64,000 nucleotides of DNA from an uncultured Gemmatimonadales bacterium (lineage in GTDB: Bacteria > Gemmatimonadota > Gemmatimonadetes > Gemmatimonadales > GWC2-71-9). The stretch's first letter is position 1. Every line of letters starts with the position of its first letter. The notes beneath the pieces were generated by a model. The model did not search any database. It was given only the letters and a program-made list of their open reading frames with translations, and was not told the DNA's origin. This document shows positions 7,310-38,563 of this stretch, piece by piece. Where the stretch lies: the NCBI GenBank assembly GCA_963828735.1, contig CAWHFW010000005.1:1088001-1152000 (forward strand), read 5' to 3'. Position numbers and translations under genes: made by a program.

Positions 7310-8217
7310 GTGGTGCCCCCCATCAATGTCGCCATCAGGGCCTTCTGGACGTGCAGCCGGTTCTCGGCCTCGTCCCAGACCCGCGACTGCGGGCCCTCGA
7401 GCACGTCCTCCGATACCTCCTCGCCGCGGTGGGCGGGGAGGCAGTGGAGAAAGATGGCCGAAGGGTCGGCGAGCCGCATGAGGTCGCCGTCCACCAGATA
7501 GCCCTGGAATGCCTTGGCGCGGATTTCCTGCTCCTGCTCCTGGCCCATCGAGGCCCATACGTCGGTGGTGACGACGTGCGCGCCGCGCGCGGCCTCCCTC
7601 GGATCGCGGGTGACCACGATGGTGGCCTTGCCCTCGTTGCGCCTGAGGATCTCGGCGTTGGGCCGGTAGCCGTCGGGGCAGGCGAGCCGCAGCTCGAAGC
7701 CCAGGCTGCCCGCCGCGTTGATCCAGCTGTTGGCCATGTTGTTGCCGTCCCCGATCCAGGCGACCGTCTTCCCTTCCCAGCCGCCCAGGCTCTCGCGCAC
7801 GGTCATGAGGTCGGCGAGCACCTGGCAGGGGTGCAGCAGGTCGGTGAGGCCGTTGATGACCGGGATCGATCCGTACTTCGCCAGCTCCTCGACGTCGGCG
7901 TGGTCGTAGGTCCGGATCATGATGGCGTCGAGGTAACGCGAGAGCACGCGCGCGGTGTCGCGGATCGGCTCACCTCGGCCGAGCTGGATGTCGCGGGACG
8001 ACAGGAAGAGCGCGTGCCCGCCAAGCTGGTAGGCGCCGACCTCGAAGGAGACGCGGGTACGGGTCGAGCTCTTGGCGAAGATCATCCCGAGCGTCTTGCC
8101 GGCGAGAGGCCGCTCGCGGTACTCGCGCCGCTTCATCCTCGCGGCGAGATCGAACAGGGTGAGCAGCTCGGGCCGGGTGAAGTCGGGGATCGCGAGGAAG
8201 TGCCGCGGTCGGGTCAT
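7306..8217 (-). CDS. argF: Ornithine carbamoyltransferase
   Basis: STRTRVSF, HPCQ, SMG, HCLP and AENR motifs. Confidence 0.96.
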   Translation of the reverse strand: MTRPRHFLAIPDFTRPELLTLFDLAARMKRREYRERPLAGKTLGMIFAKSSTRTRVSFEVGAYQLGGHALFLSSRDIQLGRGEPIRDTARVLSRYLDAIMIRTYDHADVEELAKYGSIPVINGLTDLLHPCQVLADLMTVRESLGGWEGKTVAWIGDGNNMANSWINAAGSLGFELRLACPDGYRPNAEILRRNEGKATIVVTRDPREAARGAHVVTTDVWASMGQEQEQEIRAKAFQGYLVDGDLMRLADPSAIFLHCLPAHRGEEVSEDVLEGPQSRVWDEAENRLHVQKALMATLMGGTT

Positions 8218-8336
8218 AGCGCTGGGGCTGGAGGGCCGGATCTCGAGGTCGGGCGCATTGTAGTCGGGGCCGGGACGGGGCACCAGTCCCGCGCCGCGGA
8301 GGCGGCGCGGGTTGGCGAGCCGAGGAGCTGGCGAGC

Positions 8337-8732
8337 CTACTGTCCGGCGCCTGCCTGATCGGCCAGCCTGTCGAGCCACTCGGTGTAGCCCGTTTTCTGC
8401 ACGTCGGCGAATAGCTCCTTCATCACCTGCTCCGAGCGGCGAGCCATTTCTTCCCACGGAATCGTGTCCGGCTTGGGGTTGATGTAGCGCTCGTGGTCAC
8501 GGACCGTCTTGCAGAACTCGGGGGACGCAAACTGGTAGAACTCCTGGAGAGCGAGGGTGACGTACTTGAGCTTGCGTGACAGGTCGAAGCAGAACGTCGC
8601 GAGCATGTAGAAGCGCTCGTCCGGATCAGTCCCAACGGAGTCCAGCTTCGGGGTGAGTCCCCGCGTGTGGCCATCGGTGCCAATGGCGATCTTGCCGAGT
8701 GCTTGCGCGGTGGCGGTCTGGTCGGGACTCAT
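8337..8732 (-). CDS. Orphan 131-aa helical protein downstream of a kinase
   Basis: AGGAG RBS before ATG; protein-like composition unlike the GC-rich shadow ORFs. Confidence 0.7.
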   Translation of the reverse strand: MSPDQTATAQALGKIAIGTDGHTRGLTPKLDSVGTDPDERFYMLATFCFDLSRKLKYVTLALQEFYQFASPEFCKTVRDHERYINPKPDTIPWEEMARRSEQVMKELFADVQKTGYTEWLDRLADQAGAGQ

Positions 8733-11532
8733 GAGGGGCTCCTGGGACGAGAGAGAGGCCGGCGCCGAGCGAGTCGAGCGCCGGGAGATAGAAGAGATCG
8801 GCCACGGACCACGACCGGACGAACGACTGCCGCCACCGCTCAGCGCCCGCGGAGTCGCCTCGCGCGAGCAGCAGCCGGGCGAGCAGGAAGCGCTGGGGGC
8901 CGAACGCGGTCAACGGATGGTTGGCCGTGTGCGGCTCCTGAATGCGGGCCACCGAGCGACGCAGCGCCTCGATGGTGGCGGTCGTGTCGCCCGCGAGCAG
9001 CGCCAGGCGCGCCCGGAGCGACCAGCGGAGCGCATCGGCGGCCGGCTCGGAGGGCGCGGCCGGGGCGGCCCGGTCGATGCGCCCGAGCAGCTCCCGCGTC
9101 TCGGCGGAGTCGCCCTGGACCACCGCGCGATAGACCAGCGCCTCGAACGCCTGACGCAGCTCCTCCCACGGCGGTAGCGAGAAGTCGGGCGTGCGCCCCG
9201 CTCGCATCTGGGCGCGGGCCCAATCGAACATCGCCTCGGCGCGGTCGCGCGCCGGATAGCCGGCGAGCACCGCCTGCACCAGCCAGGGATCGATGGGCGC
9301 CGAGTGCGCCGCCGAATCCCAGGCCGCATACCCTTCGGCCCAGTGCCCGAGCGCGGCGCCGATCGCGAGGCGATACTGGGCGCCGCGCAGCCGCTCCTCG
9401 GGCAGGCGGTCCGACCCCTGGAGGAAGCTCGCCGCCGTATCGGCGAGTCCGAGGGCGAACCCGCCGTGGGCCCACGCGATGACCGCCTCGCTGATCGCCT
9501 GGCGATCGGCCGAGCGCAGGCGCGTGAGCGCGGCCGCCCGCTCCGGCGGCGGGCCGAAGCGCAGCTGCACCTCGGCGACCTTGCTCGGCAGGTAGGGATG
9601 ATCGGGCAGGATGCGGCGAAGGAAAGTGCGCGCGGCCGCGCTGTCGCCCGCGTAGACCGCGAGGTCCACCAGATGGTAGTAGACCGGCGCGAACGTGCTG
9701 TCGAGCGCGATCATCCGCTCGAACGCGGGCCGCGCGTCCTGCGGCGAGGCGCCGGCGAACCCGCCATAGTGGACCAGGGACTCGCCGAGGCCCAGCCAGC
9801 CGTCCACGTCGTCGCGATCGTCGAGCACCGCGCTCTGGTAGGTGGCGATGGCGCTGTCACCGTAGCCCAGGACCAGATAGCGCTGGGCCCGAAGGAGCTG
9901 CGACCAGCGCGGCGCCATCCCGTTCGCGCGGCGGAGGCCGGCCTCCACCGCGTCGAGCGCGGCCGGATAGTCGTGGCGCCAGCCGTGAACTACGCTGAGG
10001 CGCTGGTAGGCGAGCCCGCAATTCGAGTCGGCCTCGATCGCGGTGCGGAGCTCGGCCGCCGCGGCATCGAGATCGCTGGACCAGAACTTCGCCTGTGCCT
10101 GGAGCATGTGCCCCACCGCGGGCAGGACATTGGTCGCGGCGAGCACCGCCGCCGCGGATCCAAGCTCGCGGCGCTCCTGGTGCGCGATGGTGCCGACGGC
10201 GGCGGCGGCGAGCCGCCCGACGGGTCCATCGAGAGCTCTGCCGTCGGCGGTGTCGGCCGAATGGCTCAGGCGCTGGCCGCTGTCCGCCGCGAACAGGTCG
10301 ATCGTGATGCGGGGCCCAGGCTGTCCCGGCATGACGCTGCCGACGAGGAGATAGCGGCTGCCGGCGCGGCGCGTCCGCGCGAGCAGCTCGGCCAGCGGCA
10401 GATCGCGCCACCCCCGGCCGGCGGGCACGATGTCGCCCGGCTCGGTGGCGTGAAAGCCGGGCATCCAGTCGATCAGCTCGGCGAAGAGCTCGTGCGCGCG
10501 GAGCGCGCCCGCGGCGACCGCGAGGGTGTCGCCCTCGAAAGGCAGGACCGCGATCTCGACCGGCGCTCCGACGGGAGCGGTCGCGGTCGGATGGCGGCGC
10601 GCCAGGAACAGCCCCGCGAGCACCGCGGCGACGAGCGCGATCAGCACCGGCGCGGTCCAACGCTTTCGCGCCGGCGGCGCCGGGGCCGGCGCCGGCGTCC
10701 AGCCACTCGGCGCGCGCAGCGACTCGGCGAATTCCGCCGCCGTTGCCTGGCGCTGTCCCGGACGCTTGGCCAGCGCCTTCTCGATCGCCTCCGCCGCGGG
10801 CGCCGGCACCTCGGCGCGGAGCGAGCGAATCGGACGGAGCGGCGACGTCGCGTGCCGCGCCACGACCTCCTGCCGCGACGCGCCCAGAAACGGCGGCGCG
10901 CCGGTCAGCATCTCGTACGCGACGCATCCCAGCGCGTAGATGTCGGTGCGGCCGTCGAGCTCCGCGCCGGCGGCCTGCTCGGGGCTCATGTAGACCGGCG
11001 TCCCCACGACGAGACCGGTGCTCGTCACGCGGTCGTCGGCGGCGGCGCTGATGGCGCGTGCCACGCCGAAGTCGGCCACGACGGCGTGACCGGCCTGGAT
11101 CAGCACGTTCGCCGGCTTGATGTCGCGGTGGATGACGTTGAGCTTGTGCGCGTAGGCGAGCGCGTCCGCGATCTCGCGCGTGATCACGAGCGCTTCGTCC
11201 ACCGGCAGGCGGGGCTCGCGCCGGAGCCGGTCGCGCAGGGATTCGCCCTCGACGTAGGGCATGACGTAGTAGAGGAGGCCGTCGGCCTCGCCGGAATCGT
11301 GCAGGGGAAGGATGTGCGGGTGGGACAGGCGGGAGGCGATCTCGATCTCGCGCACGAAGCGCTCGGGACCGAGCGAGATGGCCACGTCTTGCCGGAGGAT
11401 CTTGACCGCGACGCGGCGAGGCTGCCGGAGGTCCTGCGCCAGATACACCGACGCCATCCCGCCTCGGCCAATCTCGCGCTCGAGCGCATAGCGCCCGCCG
11501 AGGACGGTTCCGGCACCTACGACCAAGACCAT
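8626..11532 (-). CDS. Ser/Thr kinase with TM helix, IAVLPF (TolB-N-like) domain and TPR-like helical C-terminus
   Basis: GRGGMA, VAVK, HRDIKPAN, DFG, SPE; TM WTAPVLIALVAAVLAGLFLA; Ala-rich helical repeats. Confidence 0.9.
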   Translation of the reverse strand: MVLVVGAGTVLGGRYALEREIGRGGMASVYLAQDLRQPRRVAVKILRQDVAISLGPERFVREIEIASRLSHPHILPLHDSGEADGLLYYVMPYVEGESLRDRLRREPRLPVDEALVITREIADALAYAHKLNVIHRDIKPANVLIQAGHAVVADFGVARAISAAADDRVTSTGLVVGTPVYMSPEQAAGAELDGRTDIYALGCVAYEMLTGAPPFLGASRQEVVARHATSPLRPIRSLRAEVPAPAAEAIEKALAKRPGQRQATAAEFAESLRAPSGWTPAPAPAPPARKRWTAPVLIALVAAVLAGLFLARRHPTATAPVGAPVEIAVLPFEGDTLAVAAGALRAHELFAELIDWMPGFHATEPGDIVPAGRGWRDLPLAELLARTRRAGSRYLLVGSVMPGQPGPRITIDLFAADSGQRLSHSADTADGRALDGPVGRLAAAAVGTIAHQERRELGSAAAVLAATNVLPAVGHMLQAQAKFWSSDLDAAAAELRTAIEADSNCGLAYQRLSVVHGWRHDYPAALDAVEAGLRRANGMAPRWSQLLRAQRYLVLGYGDSAIATYQSAVLDDRDDVDGWLGLGESLVHYGGFAGASPQDARPAFERMIALDSTFAPVYYHLVDLAVYAGDSAAARTFLRRILPDHPYLPSKVAEVQLRFGPPPERAAALTRLRSADRQAISEAVIAWAHGGFALGLADTAASFLQGSDRLPEERLRGAQYRLAIGAALGHWAEGYAAWDSAAHSAPIDPWLVQAVLAGYPARDRAEAMFDWARAQMRAGRTPDFSLPPWEELRQAFEALVYRAVVQGDSAETRELLGRIDRAAPAAPSEPAADALRWSLRARLALLAGDTTATIEALRRSVARIQEPHTANHPLTAFGPQRFLLARLLLARGDSAGAERWRQSFVRSWSVADLFYLPALDSLGAGLSLVPGAPHESRPDRHRASTRQDRHWHRWPHAGTHPEAGLRWD

Positions 11533-11678
11533 GATCTCCCAGGGAGCGGCAGACCGCTAACAATACGCCAGCGGCGGGGGAATCAGCTAGGGAGTGTCCC
11601 AGGGCTCCGGGAATCTGTCGCTTCCAGGGACAGGCGCTAGGTTGGAAACGGCCTCACACCCTCGCCCGAGTACTCGCG

Positions 11679-12512
11679 ATGCCGGACAGCCTGCAATCGG
11701 TTCGAGATGCGCTCGCAGGACGCTACGCGGTCGTGCAGCCGCTTGGCCACGGGAGCATGGCCTTCGTGTTCCTGGCGGAACCGGTGGGCGGAGGATCACC
11801 GGTGGCCGTCAAGGTGCTCCGCCGCGAGCTGGCCGTCGGGTTGGGGCCGGAGCGGTTCCAGCGCGAAATCGGCATCCTGAGCCGGCTGGCGCACGCGCAC
11901 ATCGTGCCGCTGCTCGACTCGGACGCGATCGGCAGCTTCTTCTACCTGGTGATGCCCTACGTCAACGGCGAGAACCTCCGCGCGCGGCTGCAGCGCGACG
12001 GCCCGCTGCCGGTCAGCTCGGTGCGAACGATCGCGCGGGATGTAGCCGAGGCCATCGACTACGCCCACAGTCAGAACGTGCTGCACCGTGACATCAAGCC
12101 GGAGAACATCCTGCTGGAGGGAGACCGCGCGCTGGTCTGCGACTTCGGGCTGGCCCGCGCGATCGACCGGGCGGCGCTGGAACCCTCGTCGAGCGGGCTG
12201 GTGCTGGGTACGCCCGCCTACATGAGCCCCGAGCAGGCGATGGCGAGGTTGGACATCGGCCGGCCGTCCGACATATACGCCCTCGGCTGTGTGGTGTACG
12301 AGATGCTGACGGGGGAACTGCCGTTCACCGGGCCGACGGCCCAGGCCGTCATCGCGCAGCACCTCGCGGTGCCCCCGCGGTCGATGCGGGCGATTCGGCC
12401 CGAACTGTCCGAGAACCTGGAGCGGGCGGTGTTGAGCGCGCTCGCAAAGCAGCCGGGGGAGCGGCCGGGAAGTGCCTGTGGTTTGGTGAGGTCGCTGTCG
12501 GATGTGAAGTGA
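11679..12512 (+). CDS. Stand-alone Ser/Thr kinase domain
   Basis: GHGSMA, VAVK, HRDIKPEN, DFG, SPE; ends right after the kinase domain. Confidence 0.9.
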   Translation: MPDSLQSVRDALAGRYAVVQPLGHGSMAFVFLAEPVGGGSPVAVKVLRRELAVGLGPERFQREIGILSRLAHAHIVPLLDSDAIGSFFYLVMPYVNGENLRARLQRDGPLPVSSVRTIARDVAEAIDYAHSQNVLHRDIKPENILLEGDRALVCDFGLARAIDRAALEPSSSGLVLGTPAYMSPEQAMARLDIGRPSDIYALGCVVYEMLTGELPFTGPTAQAVIAQHLAVPPRSMRAIRPELSENLERAVLSALAKQPGERPGSACGLVRSLSDVK

Positions 12513-13056
12513 GCCTTCGCGCCGCACGCGTCAGGGCGCCGAGCGTGTCGCGGGCGAAGATGACGACCTCCAGGACGTCGGGCCGGAGGGTATCGGCGGT
12601 GGGCGGGAAGGCACCGGCCGCGGCCGAGTCGAGCGCCTTCATGGCGGCTGCTCCGCCGATCTTCTTGAGCGCAATCGCGGCGCGCTTGCGCGTCACGTCG
12701 ACGAAGTTCTGGCGGAATCGCTCGAGGTAGTCGGTCTGGTCTTCCAGCACCACCGCCGCGCCCGCGTAGTCGGCCAGCTGGCTGTATGCGGCCTGCAGCT
12801 GGCTCTTGACATGGCTCTCCTGCCCGGGGGCGGGCCCGTTCATTAGAGCCGAGATGAAGTGGTCCCGCGTCGACGCCGGCCTGCGCGCGGCGATGGCGAC
12901 CACCGAGTCGAGCTCGCCATCCATGCAGTCCTCGCACACCAGCCAGTCGTCGAGGGTCTCGCGCTCGCGCACGGTCAGGCTGCAGCTGTCGATGATCATC
13001 ACGATGATCGCGACCACCAGCAAGACGGCAAGCGCCTTGAGATCCTTGGCGGTCAT
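12349..13056 (-). CDS. Membrane-anchored CxxC / HEAT-like repeat protein (true stop possibly near 12531)
   Basis: ATG overlaps protease stop (ATGA); hydrophobic N-terminus; WLVCEDC; RKRAAIALKKIGG HEAT-like unit. Confidence 0.65.
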   Translation of the reverse strand: MTAKDLKALAVLLVVAIIVMIIDSCSLTVRERETLDDWLVCEDCMDGELDSVVAIAARRPASTRDHFISALMNGPAPGQESHVKSQLQAAYSQLADYAGAAVVLEDQTDYLERFRQNFVDVTRKRAAIALKKIGGAAAMKALDSAAAGAFPPTADTLRPDVLEVVIFARDTLGALTRAARRLTSHPTATSPNHRHFPAAPPAALRARSTPPAPGSRTVRAESPASTAGAPRGAAR

Positions 13057-14057
13057 GGGGCCGTCGCCTTCCGCTGCAGCTGCGGACAGGGGATGATATC
13101 CGCCACCTTGTCCTGGCACCACACCGTCATCCGGTTCGGAAAGAGGCGGTGGAGAAGCGAGCTCTCGTCCAAGTTCATGCGATATGCCTGTCCGAGAGTG
13201 AAGTGGTCCCGGTTCTCGTCCTCGTCTTCATCCAGACCCGACTGCATGATGTTCCGCTTCGTGAACCGAGGCGTCTTTGTATGCCCCATGACACCCCGGA
13301 GGCCGAAGGCGTGGCCCAACTCGTGGGCCAAGGTGACCTCGGTATGGTCCTGCAGCGAGATGTAGATCACGTTGGGTGCACCCCATTCGAAACAGGTGTA
13401 CCCGCGGACGTCGAACAGACTCCCGGTGTCGATGCGGGGGACGTAGTAGATGTTGATGGCCTCCGGGTCGTACATGGGGGGCTTCGACTTGAGCAGCATG
13501 TACGTGTTCTCGCACCCGATGCCGATGCTGTCGGCGCGCGGATGCGTCCTGGGAATCATCGTGACGACGCCGTTGGTGCCGAACGTGACCCCGATTCTGC
13601 TGAAGGTGAACAGCGCGGATGCCTGAAGGGTGTCGGTCGTGATGAGTCCCAGGTCGCTGCTGTTGTTCGACACCAGCCAGATGTTCAGCTTCGGCGCCAG
13701 CAGGTCCTGCATGGTGGGCGTGACGAGGTCCACGCTGTTGGTCCAGGGATCCCGCTGGGCATATGCCGCGTATGCGAGCGAGAAGACTACCAGCTCCGAT
13801 TTGCAGCGCGCCGATGGCGAGCCCCAGTCGCCGAATGCGGGAAACCCGACCGTGCCCCAGCCACGGTATTCCTCATCCGCGTCGCAGTTGCCGGCACGGC
13901 GGCCGCTGACGAGCACGATGGCCTCGGGGTCGGAATTCGGCGCTGTCAGGTCCACCCTGTCCTCAGCGACCACGCCCGCCGGGGTGCCGCGCCCCTCAAC
14001 GACGAGGAGCGCTCCCCCGAGGAGCGCGAGCCCCGCCGCGAGGAGGACCGGTCTCAT
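13053..14057 (-). CDS. Secreted zinc metalloprotease, metzincin (M43/pappalysin-like)
   Basis: Signal peptide MRPVLLAAGLALL; INIYYV; HELGHAFGL..H; Met-turn-like NIM; six Cys. Confidence 0.8.
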   Translation of the reverse strand: MRPVLLAAGLALLGGALLVVEGRGTPAGVVAEDRVDLTAPNSDPEAIVLVSGRRAGNCDADEEYRGWGTVGFPAFGDWGSPSARCKSELVVFSLAYAAYAQRDPWTNSVDLVTPTMQDLLAPKLNIWLVSNNSSDLGLITTDTLQASALFTFSRIGVTFGTNGVVTMIPRTHPRADSIGIGCENTYMLLKSKPPMYDPEAINIYYVPRIDTGSLFDVRGYTCFEWGAPNVIYISLQDHTEVTLAHELGHAFGLRGVMGHTKTPRFTKRNIMQSGLDEDEDENRDHFTLGQAYRMNLDESSLLHRLFPNRMTVWCQDKVADIIPCPQLQRKATAP

Positions 14058-14284
14058 GGCGGCCACGGCTTCGGCTTGGGGGCCGTGCCTTCGTTGGGGC
14101 CGCCTCCCGCGGGGTAGTTCTGTCTGACCTTGTTGAAGTTGATGCCCTTCAGGCGGGTGAGAAGCCTCCTGTACTCCTTGAGCAGCGTATCGAGCTGCTT
14201 CTCTCTCGTGTTGATCTTGCTCATGTTCGACGACACCTGGCTGAAGCTGGTCACCTTGGTTAGGAATTTCTTCTTCTTGGCCAT
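14054..14284 (-). CDS. Small basic 76-aa orphan protein with Gly/Pro tail (..GGGPNEGTAPKPKPWPP)
   Basis: Strong AAGGAGGAG RBS; stop overlaps protease ATG (ATGA); GC3-biased codons. Confidence 0.75.
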   Translation of the reverse strand: MAKKKKFLTKVTSFSQVSSNMSKINTREKQLDTLLKEYRRLLTRLKGINFNKVRQNYPAGGGPNEGTAPKPKPWPP

Positions 14285-14309
14285 GCGCTCCTCCTTAGGG
14301 TTGGTACGC

Positions 14310-17203
14310 TCACGGCACGGCGCCGGCCAGCTCCTGTCTGCCCAGCGCCAGAAGTCGATCATGGAAGTGGCTTGCGGCACCTGGCATTCCGAGAGCCCGT
14401 GCGGCCTGCATGCGCAGGCGCAGGCTCGCCGGGAGATAGAGCAGATAGGTCACCGGCTGCGGATGATCCAGCGCCGAGGCTACCTCCATTGCCTCCCGCG
14501 CCCGTCCTTGCTTCCACAAGACCTCGGCCTGCAGCATGCGCTCCGCTCCCAACGCCTCCCACTCTCCCCATTGGAGATCGCCGCCTGGCGCATGGGGCCT
14601 GAGGGCGCCCAGCCGCGCCATCGCTCGTGCGGTATCGCCCCGCAATATCGCGAGCCGCGCCTCCATGAGCCCGAGTTGCAGACTATCCGTGGGCGCCGAC
14701 GTCGCGTTGCGCTCCATGGCGCGCACGATCGCCGCGACGGCGGTCGAGTCGCGCGTGTACGCAGCCCAGACGCCGAGATACCAGAGCCGCCGGAGGCTCA
14801 TGCCTCCGTAGTCGCCCGCAAGGCTCGCCGCCACCTCGCGCGCCCGCTGGTCCAGCGGCGCACCGGCGACGGCGTCGACGACGAACATCCCCATCGCCTG
14901 CGGATTGCCGCTGGCGGCCGCCGAGTCGAGTATCCGGGCCGCCCGGTCGGCCTCGCCGCGAGCCACGAGCAGGCTCTGGAGGCCGAGCACGGCTCCCCAC
15001 CGCTCCACGGTCGAGTCCGGCAGCGCAATGACGGCACGGAATCCGCCTCGGCGCACGCGGGATACGCGCCGAGGCCCGAGAGAATCTTGGCCGCGAGCAA
15101 CGTCTCGAGCGGCGAGCGCCGTGCCAGGGAGTGCCAGTCCGTCCTGGATGCCCCGTCGCGCGCGCAGGTCACCATGAGTGAGAGCTGTGTCCCGCGATCG
15201 GCGTCGGGATGCGCCCGGTGGAACGCCGTCGCGAGGCTTTCCGCCGCGGGTAGGTCCCGCCGCCAGAGGGCCAGTTCGGCCAGGTGATAGAGCGCCGGAG
15301 CGAATTCCGGGTCCTCCCGGAGCGCCCTCACGAAGGAGGCGCTGGCCAGCGAATCGCCCCCGAGCCGCTGCGGCAGCAGGTGGAAGTACACTTCGCCCAG
15401 CGACATCCAGCCGAGGCCCCAGGTCGAGTCCAACGCAAGCGCGCGCCGGAACGACCGCTCCGCGGCGTCCGCCTCGCCAGCCATGAAGCTCTTCATCCCC
15501 TCCGCGAGCGCGACGTACTTGGTCGGCAGGATTCCCGACGAGCGAGCGCTGCGTTCACCAGCTTGGCCGCCTCGTCGCCTTTTTCCTCCCAATGGGCGGC
15601 GGCCGCCCCGCGGACGGCGGCAAGGGCCAGCGCAGAATCGGCGTCCACCGCTCGCTCGAAGTGATCGAGCGCGTCCTTGAACCGCGCTTGGCGATAGTCA
15701 CGCTCGCCCTGGAGCCAGTTGGCGATCGCATCCGGCCGCCCCGCCCCCAGCTCAGCGGGCATGCTCCGGCCGGCTGGATGACCGGACTGGACCAGGGCCG
15801 GGAGCAGGCGGATCGAGGCCCGCAACCCTAGCTGGAGCAGCGAGCGCTCGTCCGCTGCCCCAGTCTCGCTGCTGCGCAGAAGCAGGGAGTCGCCCACCGC
15901 GTCGTGGAGCCGCAGCACGACGGTGGCCGAGTCGCCGTCCACCACCATCGAGCCATCCACGAAGTAGCGCGCCTGCTGGCGCAGGCTGAGCGCCCTGGCC
16001 GTCGCGTCATCCACGGAACGCGGGTCATTGCGCTGGGCCTCAGAAAGCCAGGTCCACCCGTCGATCCACTTGAGCGGCTCACTGCGCTCGAACGCGCTAC
16101 CGATCATGATGGCGACAGCCTCCCTCGGCCACGGGTGGCGGACGCGGTCCCGTGCTGGACGAGGGGAAACACCATCACCTTGTTCCGATCGGGGGCAGCG
16201 TTGGGAGAGTGCCGCACCACCAGATCGCCACCACTCCGGCGGCCGCGAGCGCGCCCACCCATAGACGCGCCCCGTGTCGCCTGCGCCCCCTGGCGGCGGC
16301 CAGTCCCTGGGCGTTTCGCCGAGGTGCCGAGGAAGCGACCTCCTCTTCCTCCATCGCCTCGACGAATTCCGCCGCGGTCGCGAACCGGTCGGCGGGCACC
16401 TTCGACAGCGCCCGCTGTACCGTCGCCTCCAGCTCCGAGGACAACGTGGGGCGCACGACACGGAGCGAAGGCGGTGGATCCATCCTGTGGCGGGCCAGGA
16501 CGATCTGCGCGCTCCGCCCGGTGAACGGCGGCTCGCCGGCCAGCATCTCGTACAGCACACAGCCGAGCGCGTACACGTCGGCCCGCGCGTCCACCCCGTG
16601 ATCCCCGCTGCCCTGCTCGGGGCTCATGTACTCCGGCGTACCGATCGCGAGGCCCGTCGCCGTCAGGTCGTCATCGTCCGCCTCCGAGATCGCCTTCGCG
16701 ATCCCGAAGTCGGCAACGAGCGCGTGGCTTCCACCGGCGGCTTCTCCTTCGCGCGACGGGTTCCCGGTCAGCAGGATGTTGGCGGGCTTGATGTCGCGGT
16801 GGACCACCTGCTGCGCGTGCGCGTAGCTCAGCGCTTCGGCGACTTCACCGGTGATCTGCAGCGCGTCCGCCAGGCGAAGCTGCTTCTCCCTTCGGATTCG
16901 CTCCTTGAGGGTCTCGCCGTCGACGTACGGCATGACGTAGTAGAGGAACCCGTCGGCCGTGCCCGAGTCGTAGAGCGGCAGGATGTGGGGATGCTGGAGG
17001 CGGGCCTCGATGCGAATCTCGCGGAGGAAGCGCTCGGCGCCGATGGCCGCGGCCAGCTCCGGCCGGAGCACCTTGATGGCGACGTCGCGATCGTGCTGCC
17101 GATCGTGGGCCAGGTAGACGTGGGCCATGCCCCCGGAGCCGATCTCGCGATCCAGCTCGTAGCGGGGCGCGAGCGCGACCCGCAACCGTTCCACCTGTTC
17201 CAT
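14310..17203 (-). pseudogene. Ser/Thr kinase-TM-TPR gene broken by about four frameshifts (pseudogene or consensus errors)
   Basis: Kinase domain intact in 16175..17203; C-terminal sequence continues across frames with shifts near 16195, 16120, 15535 and 15040; paralogous to 8626..11532. Confidence 0.8.
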
Positions 17204-17337
17204 TACGGCGGAACCCATGGTGCACCCCTGGCGGCGGGACGCAGGCCCGCCGGTCCGTGGATGGGAGACCAATTCATCCTTGGCTCCCCACCGTGAATTG
17301 TCCGTGAACTGGAACGAAAGGATGAAGCCGCACCCAT
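17203..17337 (-). CDS. Candidate 44-aa leader ORF ending ..GAPWVPP, stop overlapping kinase start
   Basis: ATG at 17337 with GAGG upstream (alternative ATG 17277 with GGAG); TAATG overlap; -10-like TATAGT at 17376-17381. Confidence 0.35.
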   Translation of the reverse strand: MGAASSFRSSSRTIHGGEPRMNWSPIHGPAGLRPAARGAPWVPP

Positions 17338-17423
17338 GAGGGCACCGCCTCTGTCGTCGAGTTGGGATGTGGCCTACTATACAGCGCGGAGGGCAGGGCG
17401 CAAGAAGCCTGGGCTCGACCGGC

Positions 17424-18944
17424 CTACAGGATGTACCTCCGCAAGTCGTCGTCGTTCACGATCTTGGCCAGTCGCTCGCGCACCGACGTGGCGTCGTACA
17501 CGATGCGCTTCTCGGGCCAGTCGGGCAGCTCGAACAGGACCTCTTCCATCAGCGCGGCCATCACGGTGTGGAGCCGCCGCGCGCCGATGTTCTCCATCCG
17601 GTCGTTCGCCATGAAGGCCACGCGCGCCAGCTCGGCGATCCCGTCCGCCGTGAACTCCAGCTCCACTCCCTCGGCGGCCACGAGCGCCTGGTACTGCTTC
17701 GTGAGCGCGTTCTCCGGCTCGGTCATGATCCGGATGAAGTCCTGCTCGGTGAGCGGTTGCAGCTCGACCCGGATCGGGAAGCGGCCCTGAAGCTCGGGGA
17801 TCAGGTCCGACGGCTTGGAGACGTGGAACGCGCCGGCCGCGATGAACAGGATGTGATCGCTCCGGACGTAGCCGTACCGGGTCTGGATGGTGGAGCCCTC
17901 GACGATGGGCAGGAGATCCCGCTGGACGCCCTCCCGGCTCACGTCCGGCCCGCCGCCCTGGCTGCGCTCGCCGGCGATCTTGTCGAGCTCGTCGATGAAG
18001 ATGATGCCATGGTTCTCGACCCGGTCGAGGGATTCGTTCACCACGTCGTCCATGTCCACCAGCTTCTTGAGCTCCTCGTCCACCAGGACCCGACGGGCCT
18101 CGGGCACCTTCACCGTGCGCCGCTTGGTGCGCTTGGGGAGCATCTCCTGCAGCATCTCGGTGAAGTTGATGTCCGGCCCCTCCATGCCCTGGGGCGGCTG
18201 CATCATCTCCATCATAGGAAAGCTCTGGGGGGTGACGTCGATCTCGACTTCACGGTCATCGAGCTCCCCCGCGGCCAGCATGGCGCGCAGCTTCTCGCGG
18301 GAGCGGCTCCGCCGGTCGTCGTCGCCCGTGGATGCGCGCTCGGCCTTCGCCTGGCCGCTCGATCCCACGACGAAGACGGGTCCTCGCTCCGGTTTCTCCG
18401 ACTTGTCCGCCCGGTCGGCCGGCGCGGGCGCGGGTGGCAGCAGCAGATCGAGCAGCCGCTCGTCGGCCCGTTGCTCCGCCTGCGGGAACACCTCGTCCTC
18501 GCGCTCGGTGCGCACCATGTTGATCGCGGCGTCCACCAGATCGCGCACCATACTCTCGGCGTCGCGGCCGACGTATCCCACCTCGGTGAACTTCGACGCC
18601 TCGACCTTGATGAATGGCGCTCCGCTCAACCGGGCGAGGCGCCGCGCCACCTCGGTTTTTCCGACGCCGGTCGGCCCGATCATGATGATGTTGTACGGCG
18701 TGATCTCGTCCCGGATGTCGTCGGGCGCCTGCGCACGGCGCCACCGATTCCGGACGGCGATGGCGACCGCCTTCTTGGCGGCCTCCTGGCCGACGATGTA
18801 GCGGTTGAGCTCGGCGACGATCTGCCGCGGCGGCATCTCCTCGAGCCAGGGGAGCGGTGCCTCGGCCTCGGGTGCGTTGGGAAGGGGAGCGGGGTTGGGC
18901 ATGGGGTGCATGGCGGGAGTCCCGGGCGGCGAGTCGTGGGTCAC
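17424..18944 (-). CDS. hslU: ATP-dependent protease ATPase subunit HslU
   Basis: GPTGVGKT, KFTEVGYVG, FIDELDK, ENIGARRL. Confidence 0.97.
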   Translation of the reverse strand: MTHDSPPGTPAMHPMPNPAPLPNAPEAEAPLPWLEEMPPRQIVAELNRYIVGQEAAKKAVAIAVRNRWRRAQAPDDIRDEITPYNIIMIGPTGVGKTEVARRLARLSGAPFIKVEASKFTEVGYVGRDAESMVRDLVDAAINMVRTEREDEVFPQAEQRADERLLDLLLPPAPAPADRADKSEKPERGPVFVVGSSGQAKAERASTGDDDRRSRSREKLRAMLAAGELDDREVEIDVTPQSFPMMEMMQPPQGMEGPDINFTEMLQEMLPKRTKRRTVKVPEARRVLVDEELKKLVDMDDVVNESLDRVENHGIIFIDELDKIAGERSQGGGPDVSREGVQRDLLPIVEGSTIQTRYGYVRSDHILFIAAGAFHVSKPSDLIPELQGRFPIRVELQPLTEQDFIRIMTEPENALTKQYQALVAAEGVELEFTADGIAELARVAFMANDRMENIGARRLHTVMAALMEEVLFELPDWPEKRIVYDATSVRERLAKIVNDDDLRRYIL

Positions 18945-37653: not shown

Positions 37654-38076
37654 TTAGTAGCAGGCCGGCGCACCCTCGGCGGTCACGGCGCCGTTCGGCG
37701 CAACGCCCGAGCCGACATAGATGCCGCAGGTCTGAATCGCGCCCTTGAGGGTCGCGTTGGTCACCACCGCCGACCACCCACCCGCGCTCTGCCGGGTCAC
37801 GGTGATCACGTTGTTGGCCGAAGGCACGAAGGCCACCGTGCCCGCGCCGGCAGTGCCGTTGACCTGCGCCGGGCCCAGCGTGCCCGAGTAGTCCTGGTTA
37901 TCCGAGAAGAAACCCTCTTCCGCCGTCACCAGGTTGCGCAGGTCCGACTTCATGCTGGCCAGCACCGCCTTCTCCTTCGTGTTCGCGAACTTCGGGATCG
38001 CGATAGCCGCCAGAATGCCGATGATGACGACCACGATCAGAAGCTCGATCAGGGTAAAGCCCTTGCGGTTCGACAT
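37654..38076 (-). CDS. pilA: Type IV major pilin, copy 2
   Basis: RKG|FTLIELLIVVVIIGILAAIAIP, C-terminal Cys pair; AGGAG RBS. Confidence 0.9.
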   Translation of the reverse strand: MSNRKGFTLIELLIVVVIIGILAAIAIPKFANTKEKAVLASMKSDLRNLVTAEEGFFSDNQDYSGTLGPAQVNGTAGAGTVAFVPSANNVITVTRQSAGGWSAVVTNATLKGAIQTCGIYVGSGVAPNGAVTAEGAPACY

Positions 38077-38140: not shown

Positions 38141-38563
38141 TCAGTAGCAGGCCGGCGCGCCCTCGGCGGTCACGGCGCCGTTCGGCGCAACGCCCGAGCC
38201 GACGAAGATGCCGCAGGTCTTGATGGCGCCCTTGAGGGTCGCGTTGGTCGCAGTCGCCGACCACCCACCCGCGCTCTGCCGGGTCACGGTGAGCACGTTG
38301 TTGGCCGAAGGCACGAAGGCCACCGTGCCCGCGCCGGCAGTACCGTTGACCTGCGCCGGGCCCAGCGTGCCCGAGTAGTCCTGGTTATCCGAGAAGAAAC
38401 CCTCTTCCGCCGTCACCAGGTTGCGCAGGTCCGACTTCATGCTGGCCAGTACCGCCTTCTCCTTCGTGTTCGCGAACTTCGGGATCGCGATAGCCGCCAG
38501 AATGCCGATGATGACGACCACGATCAGAAGCTCGATCAGGGTAAAGCCCTTGCGGTTCGACAT
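38141..38563 (-). CDS. pilA: Type IV major pilin, copy 1
   Basis: Same 140-aa length as copy 2 with five amino-acid differences; GGAGG RBS. Confidence 0.9.
   Translation of the reverse strand: MSNRKGFTLIELLIVVVIIGILAAIAIPKFANTKEKAVLASMKSDLRNLVTAEEGFFSDNQDYSGTLGPAQVNGTAGAGTVAFVPSANNVLTVTRQSAGGWSATATNATLKGAIKTCGIFVGSGVAPNGAVTAEGAPACY

Follow-up and report, generated by a model that had tools for sequence, protein, structure and literature searches.

The window analysed here comprises 64,000 nucleotides of an uncultured Gemmatimonadales bacterium (assembly GCA_963828735.1, contig CAWHFW010000005.1, positions 1,088,001 to 1,152,000 of the forward strand); homologues with a named source likewise indicate Gemmatimonadales. 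On its minus strand it carries four genes in series, which encode a kinase-TM-TPR protein with a transmembrane (TM) segment, a small protein of 76 amino acids (aa), a 334-aa HExxH protein and a 235-aa CxxC protein. The stop codon of the kinase gene (14312-14310) lies 25 nt ahead of the 76-aa open reading frame (ORF), and ATGA overlaps connect this ORF to the HExxH gene (14057) and the latter to the CxxC gene (13056). The co-orientation, the gap, both overlaps, the strong ribosome-binding site and the tail of the small protein had been pointed out in a preliminary description of the locus and could all be confirmed in the sequence. No sigma-70-type promoter was found within 8000-17600. The parts of the cassette are the following, L019 being the nearest intact receptor-small protein pair from another locus.

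14310..17218, minus strand: receptor Hanks kinase with a cytoplasmic kinase domain, a TM helix and a TolB_N-like plus TPR ectodomain (~620 aa), as predicted from Pfam, the L019 alignment and AlphaFold2 (AF2)
14290..14296, minus strand: AAGGAGG, the ribosome-binding site of the 76-aa ORF, 5 nt upstream of its ATG
14054..14284, minus strand: 76-aa candidate peptide precursor with a basic N-terminus, an amphipathic helix, a Gly linker and a Pro-rich tail, no signal peptide
14057..14092, minus strand: C-terminal 12 residues, candidate ligand, EGTAPKPKPWPP; the equivalent L019 residues form the modelled interface
13053..14057, minus strand: metzincin of 334 aa, predicted to be exported (alignment, AF2, VIA)
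12349..13056, minus strand: 235-aa ORF for a putative membrane-anchored or lipoprotein WLxCxEC/HEAT-like partner of the metzincin; the conserved part stops near 12540
11679..12512, plus strand: short kinase-only gene, convergent on the cassette and possibly its fifth part according to the neighbourhood comparison

The cassette is real, widespread and apparently undescribed. Its four-gene layout is conserved across Gemmatimonadota; it was found again in many genomes, and a chance arrangement is excluded. At 84 of the 95 distinct receptor loci with room for it, a small ORF lies directly behind the receptor gene. A Pro-rich tail (at least 4 Pro in 16 residues) is encoded at 68 of these 95 loci and internal poly-Pro or repeats at 9 more, while the same caller, applied to 64 other long kinases from this genome, detected a Pro-tailed ORF behind only 1. 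Among the loci that were found via the receptor alone, a Pro-tailed ORF is present at 42 of 61 (hand count). The figure of 68 scores as misses one locus that the automatic caller mis-called (L089), two that were uncallable due to frameshifts (L024, L086) and four that were uncallable due to a peptide gene elsewhere in the cassette or a contig end (L038, L040, L042, L080). Counts are given instead of Fisher or hypergeometric values because related loci are not independent and such values would overstate the association. The small gene remains behind the receptor despite changes in gene order, except at four loci where the receptor gene is oriented away from the operon, in three of which the peptide gene follows the HEAT gene. 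A presumed precursor-protease fusion in L086 was rejected since it resulted from a frameshift, and the usual tail is present in the other frame. The neighbourhood comparison suggested in the preliminary description was favourable to it in that the genes co-occur in other genomes and the small ORF is kept, as judged from position and coding constraint. The view of the four genes as one operon held in that the unit recurs in Gemmatimonadota, but it is one variant only: the constant core is the receptor and the small protein, and the metzincin and HEAT genes are exchangeable.

The 76-aa ORF shows the bias of a coding sequence, with GC contents of 0.87 at third (GC3) and 0.43 at second (GC2) codon positions. 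Soil short-read contigs from four runs were compared with the locus, and those of three runs cover this ORF with 0-1 differences. Moreover, the ratio of nonsynonymous to synonymous changes (pN/pS) in small ORFs ranges from 0.19 to 0.68 and is below 1 in 16 of 16 pairs. As stated before, the protein is basic (17 K/R vs 4 D/E), and no classical signal peptide was found in it. Its helix moment exceeds that of 99% of shuffled sequences; an amphipathic helix above 95% of shuffles is present in 18 of 57 small proteins, including this one. The small proteins share little sequence (mean column identity 18%), and relatives of the 76-aa protein are recognisable by position and tail only. A P-x(0-2)-[WYF] motif occurs in the last 8 residues of 46 of the 57 non-repeat tails. 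Of the two sequence searches that had been envisaged, the one with the 76-aa protein retrieved only the protein itself, the ESM Atlas giving no usable match, and the one with the protease as a single-sequence query found it in 17 of 101 relatives. A tblastn match of the 76-aa protein on contig C2 was rejected, as it lies inside an unrelated long ORF. Neither this protein nor the metzincin and the HEAT protein of the locus belongs to a Pfam or NCBIfam family. Internal duplications and two tandem small genes were observed at L020, L023 and L026.

Some loci show other arrangements. The small proteins of L176, L178 and L181 contain two internal runs of poly-Pro, with a helix after each of them, and a short kinase gene in the same direction comes next. 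The repeat precursors of L164, L171 and L148 are built without Arg-only junctions (Asp-Pro-type units; RPPGPPHPP units), and none of the three protease families described below is found near them. At L116:2-1162, a Lys/Pro-rich ORF of 38 aa and a gene of the CpXC family come after the receptor gene.

The kinase domain of the receptor matches Pfam Pkinase (E 1e-50), and TPR matches were obtained as well. The catalytic Lys and the HRD and DFG motifs are present in the frame translation, and a hydrophobic segment follows a basic stretch in all intact receptor homologues listed. With these motifs, a predicted TM helix and a modelled extracytoplasmic sensor, the protein has the features of a Hanks-type receptor kinase. 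The gene is split into five frame segments, with breaks near 16216, 16121, 15535 and 15042, and the segments align end to end with the intact 950-aa L019 kinase (80% in the kinase domain, 45-55% in the ectodomain). The AF2 model of the L019 ectodomain has a predicted local distance difference test (pLDDT) value of 95. Its structural matches are the TPR domain of PEX5 (Z 17.8, the top match), TolB (Z 13.0) and the periplasmic domain of CadC (Z 12.5 over 290 residues); as modelled, the fold is TolB_N plus TPR, like that of the CadC periplasmic domain. A profile of the ectodomain delimits a sharp subfamily, with E values of full-length hits below 1e-120 compared with about 1e-47 for the next class. 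The subfamily is present in 53 of 401 genomes of the phylum and in 40 genomes of the genus (one unpublished genome excluded); the receptor gene of this locus was missed by the profile because it is broken. Of the 18 other genomes with the metzincin, 17 fall among these 40.

Kinases of this kind are numerous in the genome, which holds 90 Hanks-kinase loci in 4.8 Mb, most of whose products combine a TM helix with a long C-terminal domain. In the protein P0273, the receptor ectodomain described above is joined to a BTAD (SARP-type) domain, a possible hint at a transcriptional output, and in L152 (L152:5253-6878) a Trans_reg_C/BTAD/kinase ORF is located immediately upstream.

Because the receptor gene of this locus is broken, the complex was modelled for the L019 pair, the small protein of which has a tail resembling that of the 76-aa protein. 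The prediction of the TPR domain with the tail, as proposed in the preliminary description, was thus made for a close counterpart instead of the broken receptor itself: the L019 complex scored 0.63 (runs 0.62, 0.64 and 0.63) and the best control 0.01, with a pLDDT of 48 for the partner. The mark applied to this score is reached by 116 of 157 solved complexes and by 2 of 215 mismatched pairs, and with the custom alignments used here these counts apply only roughly. The runs share at least 42% of contacts, and the whole modelled interface consists of the last 12 residues of the small protein. In the modelled pocket, H273 (94%), W402 (88%) and W547 (88%) are conserved among variable neighbours, and the equivalents of all three are kept in the receptor gene of this locus; the modelled interface overall is less conserved than the domain (0.39 vs 0.55). 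Aromatic clamps are the usual way of reading polyproline. Furthermore, the more alike two ectodomains are, the more alike are their tails (r 0.45; 0 of 999 permutations), and there is an extra signal at the modelled interface columns (64 pairs; partial r 0.17; 10 of 1000 matched random column sets), shared descent contributing to both correlations. As modelled, the Pro-rich tail very probably binds the receptor ectodomain.

The protease slot of the cassette is exchangeable and may be occupied by the metzincin with its CxxC/HEAT partner, by a subtilase (16 loci) or by a metacaspase (7 loci). The subtilase (S8) gene lies directly upstream at 16 loci lacking the metzincin; PF00082 was above the cut-off in 14 of 14 proteins scanned, and in the alignment H239 and S459 of the catalytic triad are invariant and D188 is conserved at 90% or more. 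The metacaspase (C14) gene lies directly behind the small gene at 6 loci lacking the metzincin; PF00656 was found in the two proteins scanned, and the His-Cys dyad (GHG and D[SA]CHSG) is present in 6 of 6. In the genus, 19 metzincin genomes and 19 S8-profile genomes do not overlap, the top S8-profile matches being mostly the profile's own members. The type of precursor also differs with the type of protease. All six C14 loci encode tandem-repeat precursors, in which Arg stands between 4-8 copies of Pro/Gly-rich units. A family-wide search for C14 revealed one new strong match (L195), which was found blind and lies behind the same receptor and an Arg-repeat precursor; seven weaker matches have no receptor within 1.5 kb. 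According to the available text of the respective sources, orthocaspases cleave behind basic residues (PMC6426788), and Pep1 is released at Arg69 by metacaspase 4 in plants (PMC13157962). Moreover, precursors with a signal peptide or TM segment accompany the exported metzincin in 23 of 35 cases and S8 or C14 in 0 of 22 (hand count), and the S8 and C14 proteins of the cassettes are themselves without signal peptides.

The HExxH protein had been called a metzincin in the preliminary description, and alignment and modelling bear this out. It consists of an N-terminal hydrophobic segment, a beta-sandwich (30-118) and a catalytic domain with HELGH (245-249), H259 and the Met-turn M271. The HExxH residues H245, E246 and H249 are invariant in 18 of 18 metzincin sequences, as are the Met-turn N269-x-M271 and six Cys. 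As to the third zinc ligand, P0014, P0015 and L034 have a His in the canonical position; the candidate His lies four residues later here (H259), and in others the ligand is of the Asp type or ambiguous. The AF2 model (pLDDT 82) was compared by VIA: the top 25 matches are all metzincins, with Z 12-13 to reprolysins, ADAM/ADAMTS and ulilysin, and the best match has Z 13.3 and a root-mean-square deviation (rmsd) of 3.5 over 177 aligned residues. Judged by its alignment and predicted fold, the protease is a new metzincin family without a Pfam or NCBIfam model. The metzincin profile detected it in 19 of 103 genomes of the genus and 21 of 401 genomes of the phylum, own genome included, and 1442 clusters match the profile at E <= 1e-10; a search for related loci seeded with the single metzincin sequence found none.

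The CxxC/HEAT gene stands beside the metzincin gene at 34 of 36 receptor-bearing loci with room. Pfam HEAT_2 was detected in 13 of 42 members of this partner family, not in the member of this locus, and a lipobox-like motif is present in 31 of 52 (loose pattern). The HEAT protein may serve as an inhibitor, a chaperone or a scaffold. The 235-aa ORF is probably too long by its final ~57 aa, because their GC3 is 0.56, they overlap the kinase gene 11679-12512 in antisense and the homologues stop near 12540. Outside the phylum, the pair is located behind zf-HC2/CHAT-TPR genes and a gene for a ~310-aa Tat-type protein (L035, L043; Acidobacteriota), behind a CHASE2 kinase (L039) or an ATP-grasp gene (L036), or alone. 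The metzincin and the HEAT protein form an exchangeable module that is also found with other receptors in other phyla. In the two Acidobacteriota arrays (L035:2651-9400 and L043), the ~310-aa Tat-type protein ends in a Cys/Pro-rich tail, and the metzincin and HEAT pair follows it.

On balance, we favour the view that the cassette encodes the precursor, the processing protease and the receptor kinase of a peptide signal. The product of the small gene would be a precursor, and its Pro-rich C-terminal peptide the specific ligand of the periplasmic TPR domain. The co-encoded protease, be it the metzincin with its CxxC/HEAT helper, the subtilase or the metacaspase, would cut the precursor and free the peptide; binding of the peptide would switch the cytoplasmic kinase, and the signal might be relayed via the short kinase. 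Receptor pocket and tail would diversify jointly and give rise to strain-specific signals. This view builds on the observed gene linkage, coding, domain types, catalytic motifs, protease swap and precursor-protease matching and on the modelled binding in L019, from which we infer cleavage, agonism, export and output. That the protease cuts the precursor is likely, and our leaning is that the freed peptide would act as an agonist. The preliminary description had taken the small protein for a ligand, substrate or inhibitor of the receptor that the protease matures or destroys. The idea of a protease-processed ligand gains support from adjacency, the tail-in-pocket model of L019, co-variation and the swap of three proteases with matching precursors.

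Several observations weigh against this interpretation. TPR folds often accept peptides in models through their likeness to solved complexes such as PEX5-PTS1, and since the top match of the ectodomain is PEX5, a receptor for C-terminal peptides, the score of the model may partly reflect solved TPR-peptide complexes. The complex was modelled for the L019 pair and not for the pair of this locus, and with the cognate tail only. Five loci encode a small protein with a helix only and no Pro tail (L146, L147, L177, L186, L188), many receptor loci lack a nearby protease, and the metzincin and HEAT pair also occurs at 17 of 28 receptor-free loci with room. In four of four genomes with Arg-repeat precursors lacking an adjacent C14, the cognate C14 was not found. 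S8 and C14 each occur essentially in one receptor clade (FastTree, 94 rows), so that these associations rest on few independent events. Finally, the precursor of this locus, 11 other metzincin-paired ones and all those paired with S8 or C14 have no signal peptide, and every intact receptor has a TM helix. Signal-less precursors of a periplasmic receptor require non-classical export or release on lysis. In the available text of PMC13157962, the plant PEP and systemin precursors pose the same export problem. Tentatively, and rather doubtfully, the cassette may be a peptide-hormone or danger-signal system of the Gemmatimonadota, independent of that of plants, in which signal-less precursors are released by cell damage or lysis and neighbouring kin perceive the peptides via the TPR receptor kinase. 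In such a system, a subtilase, metacaspase or ADAM-like sheddase may cut strain-specific Pro-rich peptides out of the precursors, with possible relay to a soluble kinase.

It is also conceivable, though unlikely, that the small protein is a built-in inhibitor or bait that holds the receptor off by its tail, proteolysis switching the kinase on. The small protein could be removed by the cassette's own protease, by a foreign protease or by envelope damage, following the logic of CpxP-CpxA-DegP, and the system would be a cell-autonomous sensor of stress or attack instead of a signal between cells. The same linkage and the same binding model fit this possibility. The strong ribosome-binding site suggests an abundant, stoichiometric product, and 23 of the 35 metzincin-paired small proteins are lipoproteins or membrane-anchored and would thus remain with the cell. 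However, the tandem precursors with 4-8 copies, basic junctions and a matching metacaspase resemble signal amplification, and signal-less precursors with cytoplasmic-type proteases are unlikely to sit constitutively on a periplasmic domain.

Still less likely, the intact, multivalent small protein is itself the agonist, which would cluster kinases through helix oligomers or repeats, and the protease would end the signal by separating the tails from one another. Both precursor designs could yield several tails, either by the amphipathic helix and duplications or tandem genes or by repeats, and Arg-repeat precursors exist in the genomes in which the cognate C14 was not found. Furthermore, the available text of PMC13147305 describes ligand-promoted dimerisation as typical of bacterial receptor kinases. 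The export of an intact signal-less protein would, however, be harder than that of a short peptide.

Decay of the cassette in this strain, with the receptor gene as a true pseudogene, is improbable. There are four frameshifts in 2.9 kb, the stop codon of the HEAT gene is lost, and the break near 15535 falls in a bin without short-read coverage. Yet a one-base insertion is seen at 16216, 16121 and 15042 in short-read contigs from two of the four soil samples sequenced (one contig each, at a depth of 2.5-4), and the kinase motifs and pocket residues are intact. Three of the four frameshifts are probably assembly errors, because the short-read contigs of these near-identical strains carry the missing base.

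In a conflict or defence island, the protease could be an output or a cargo without relation to the rest, and the small protein a substrate or adaptor of the kinase in the cytoplasm; this reading is very improbable. S8 and C14 proteases are frequent effectors of conflict systems, the hslU-argF site holds different cassettes in different genomes, the metzincin and HEAT pair travels with other receptors, and signal-less precursors are cytoplasmic as made; PADLOC yielded only kinase-domain and caspase matches (caspase E 1e-23). But PADLOC gave nothing for the small protein, the metzincin or the HEAT protein, an exported metzincin cannot be the substrate of a cytoplasmic kinase, the Arg-repeat precursors fit the metacaspase, and it is the ectodomain that is contacted in the model. 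The kinase substrate named in the preliminary description is unlikely as well, many homologous small proteins being exported or lipoproteins and only 30 of 57 tails having Ser/Thr among their final 10 residues.

The content of the hslU-argF site differs by genome and includes metzincin, subtilase, protease-free and other-receptor cassettes. The short kinase, a candidate target of the receptor kinase, is encoded beside both metzincin and subtilase cassettes in the genus, but in L154 its gene adjoins a receptor of another type at this site. In three of the four soil runs, contigs agree with the short kinase gene as far as 12537 and then run on for 325-405 nt with unlike sequence; one of these three runs also contains the HEAT gene of this locus. 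The divergence at 12537 could mean that strains differ in their cassettes (another allele), that a segment is missing or that the assembly is at fault. On the minus strand, 8337-11532 holds a second kinase-TM-TPR gene, which belongs to a different class and extends 107 nt into its small gene; this small gene encodes a conserved ~126-131-aa protein without a Pro tail and without a Pfam family. The pair recurs in L024, L122, L130, L134, L154, L155, L157-L159 and L190 and is possibly a second receptor-partner type. Two tandem pilin-like genes on the minus strand (37654-38076 and 38141-38563) are of equal length, and the first 70 residues of their products are identical.

No named system with such a layout had been known to the preliminary description, and no paper on one was found in the literature covered, most subscription papers and supplements lying outside it. 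The metzincin resembles reprolysins, ADAM/ADAMTS and ulilysin/mirolysin in HExxH, Met-turn and fold (Z 12-13), but has a displaced or variable third zinc ligand, an N-terminal beta-sandwich and a CxxC/HEAT partner; as an analogy, an exported protease beside membrane-tethered ligands recalls sheddases. In the CpxA-CpxP-DegP system, a small periplasmic partner of a sensor kinase is removed by a protease. There, a histidine kinase, a conserved folded partner and a housekeeping protease are involved, whereas the cassettes encode hypervariable tails, repeat precursors and their own proteases. RRNPP systems have adjacent receptor and peptide genes, and a Rap-peptide structure is among the generic TPR fold matches of the ectodomain (Z 12.0, rmsd 9.9). 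As far as the available text of PMC7595303 goes, the RRNPP systems (Rap-Phr, Rgg-SHP, PlcR-PapR) also have a TPR receptor and a small precursor that is matured by proteolysis to a short peptide, and the predicted TPR receptor and small precursor gene of the cassette agree with this. However, their receptors are cytoplasmic regulators of Gram-positive bacteria and need re-import of the peptide (PMC7595303), whereas the receptor described here is a putative membrane-spanning Ser/Thr kinase from a diderm and is accompanied by a dedicated, exchangeable protease. In Xanthomonas citri, PknS has the same kinase-TM-periplasmic TPR architecture, and its periplasmic domain controls activation (PMC13147305). 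Its output is the sigma factor EcfK; the available text of that study leaves the activating signal for future work and names no peptide or protease partner. A sigma factor was not noticed in the cassettes, although no profile search aimed at sigma factors was made.

The closest likeness is to plant peptide signalling. As described in the available text of PMC13157962, PROPEP1-metacaspase 4-Pep1 and the CLE/CLEL/SCOOP-subtilase systems combine a C-terminal peptide precursor with a membrane receptor, processing is performed by subtilases or by an Arg-specific metacaspase, and precursors occur with and without signal peptides. The plant receptors have an LRR ectodomain instead of TPR, and here the parts are encoded in one bacterial operon with a metzincin as the third protease; no homology is claimed, and the likeness, which is drawn from gene linkage and the complex model, would be one of working principle only. 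For most receptor Ser/Thr kinases of bacteria the activating signal is not known, and one subfamily here brings its own candidate ligand, a synthesisable peptide of 10-14 residues, together with a candidate processing enzyme. The ligand question is therefore directly accessible to work with purified proteins, many natural receptor-peptide pairs being at hand. If the ligand reading were true, the cassette would represent a new category of system and suggest that members of this abundant soil phylum, most of which are uncultured, signal from cell to cell or in response to damage. Peptide signalling in bacteria would then have a third architecture besides the histidine-kinase and RRNPP systems, one that parallels plant phytocytokine processing down to the protease families.

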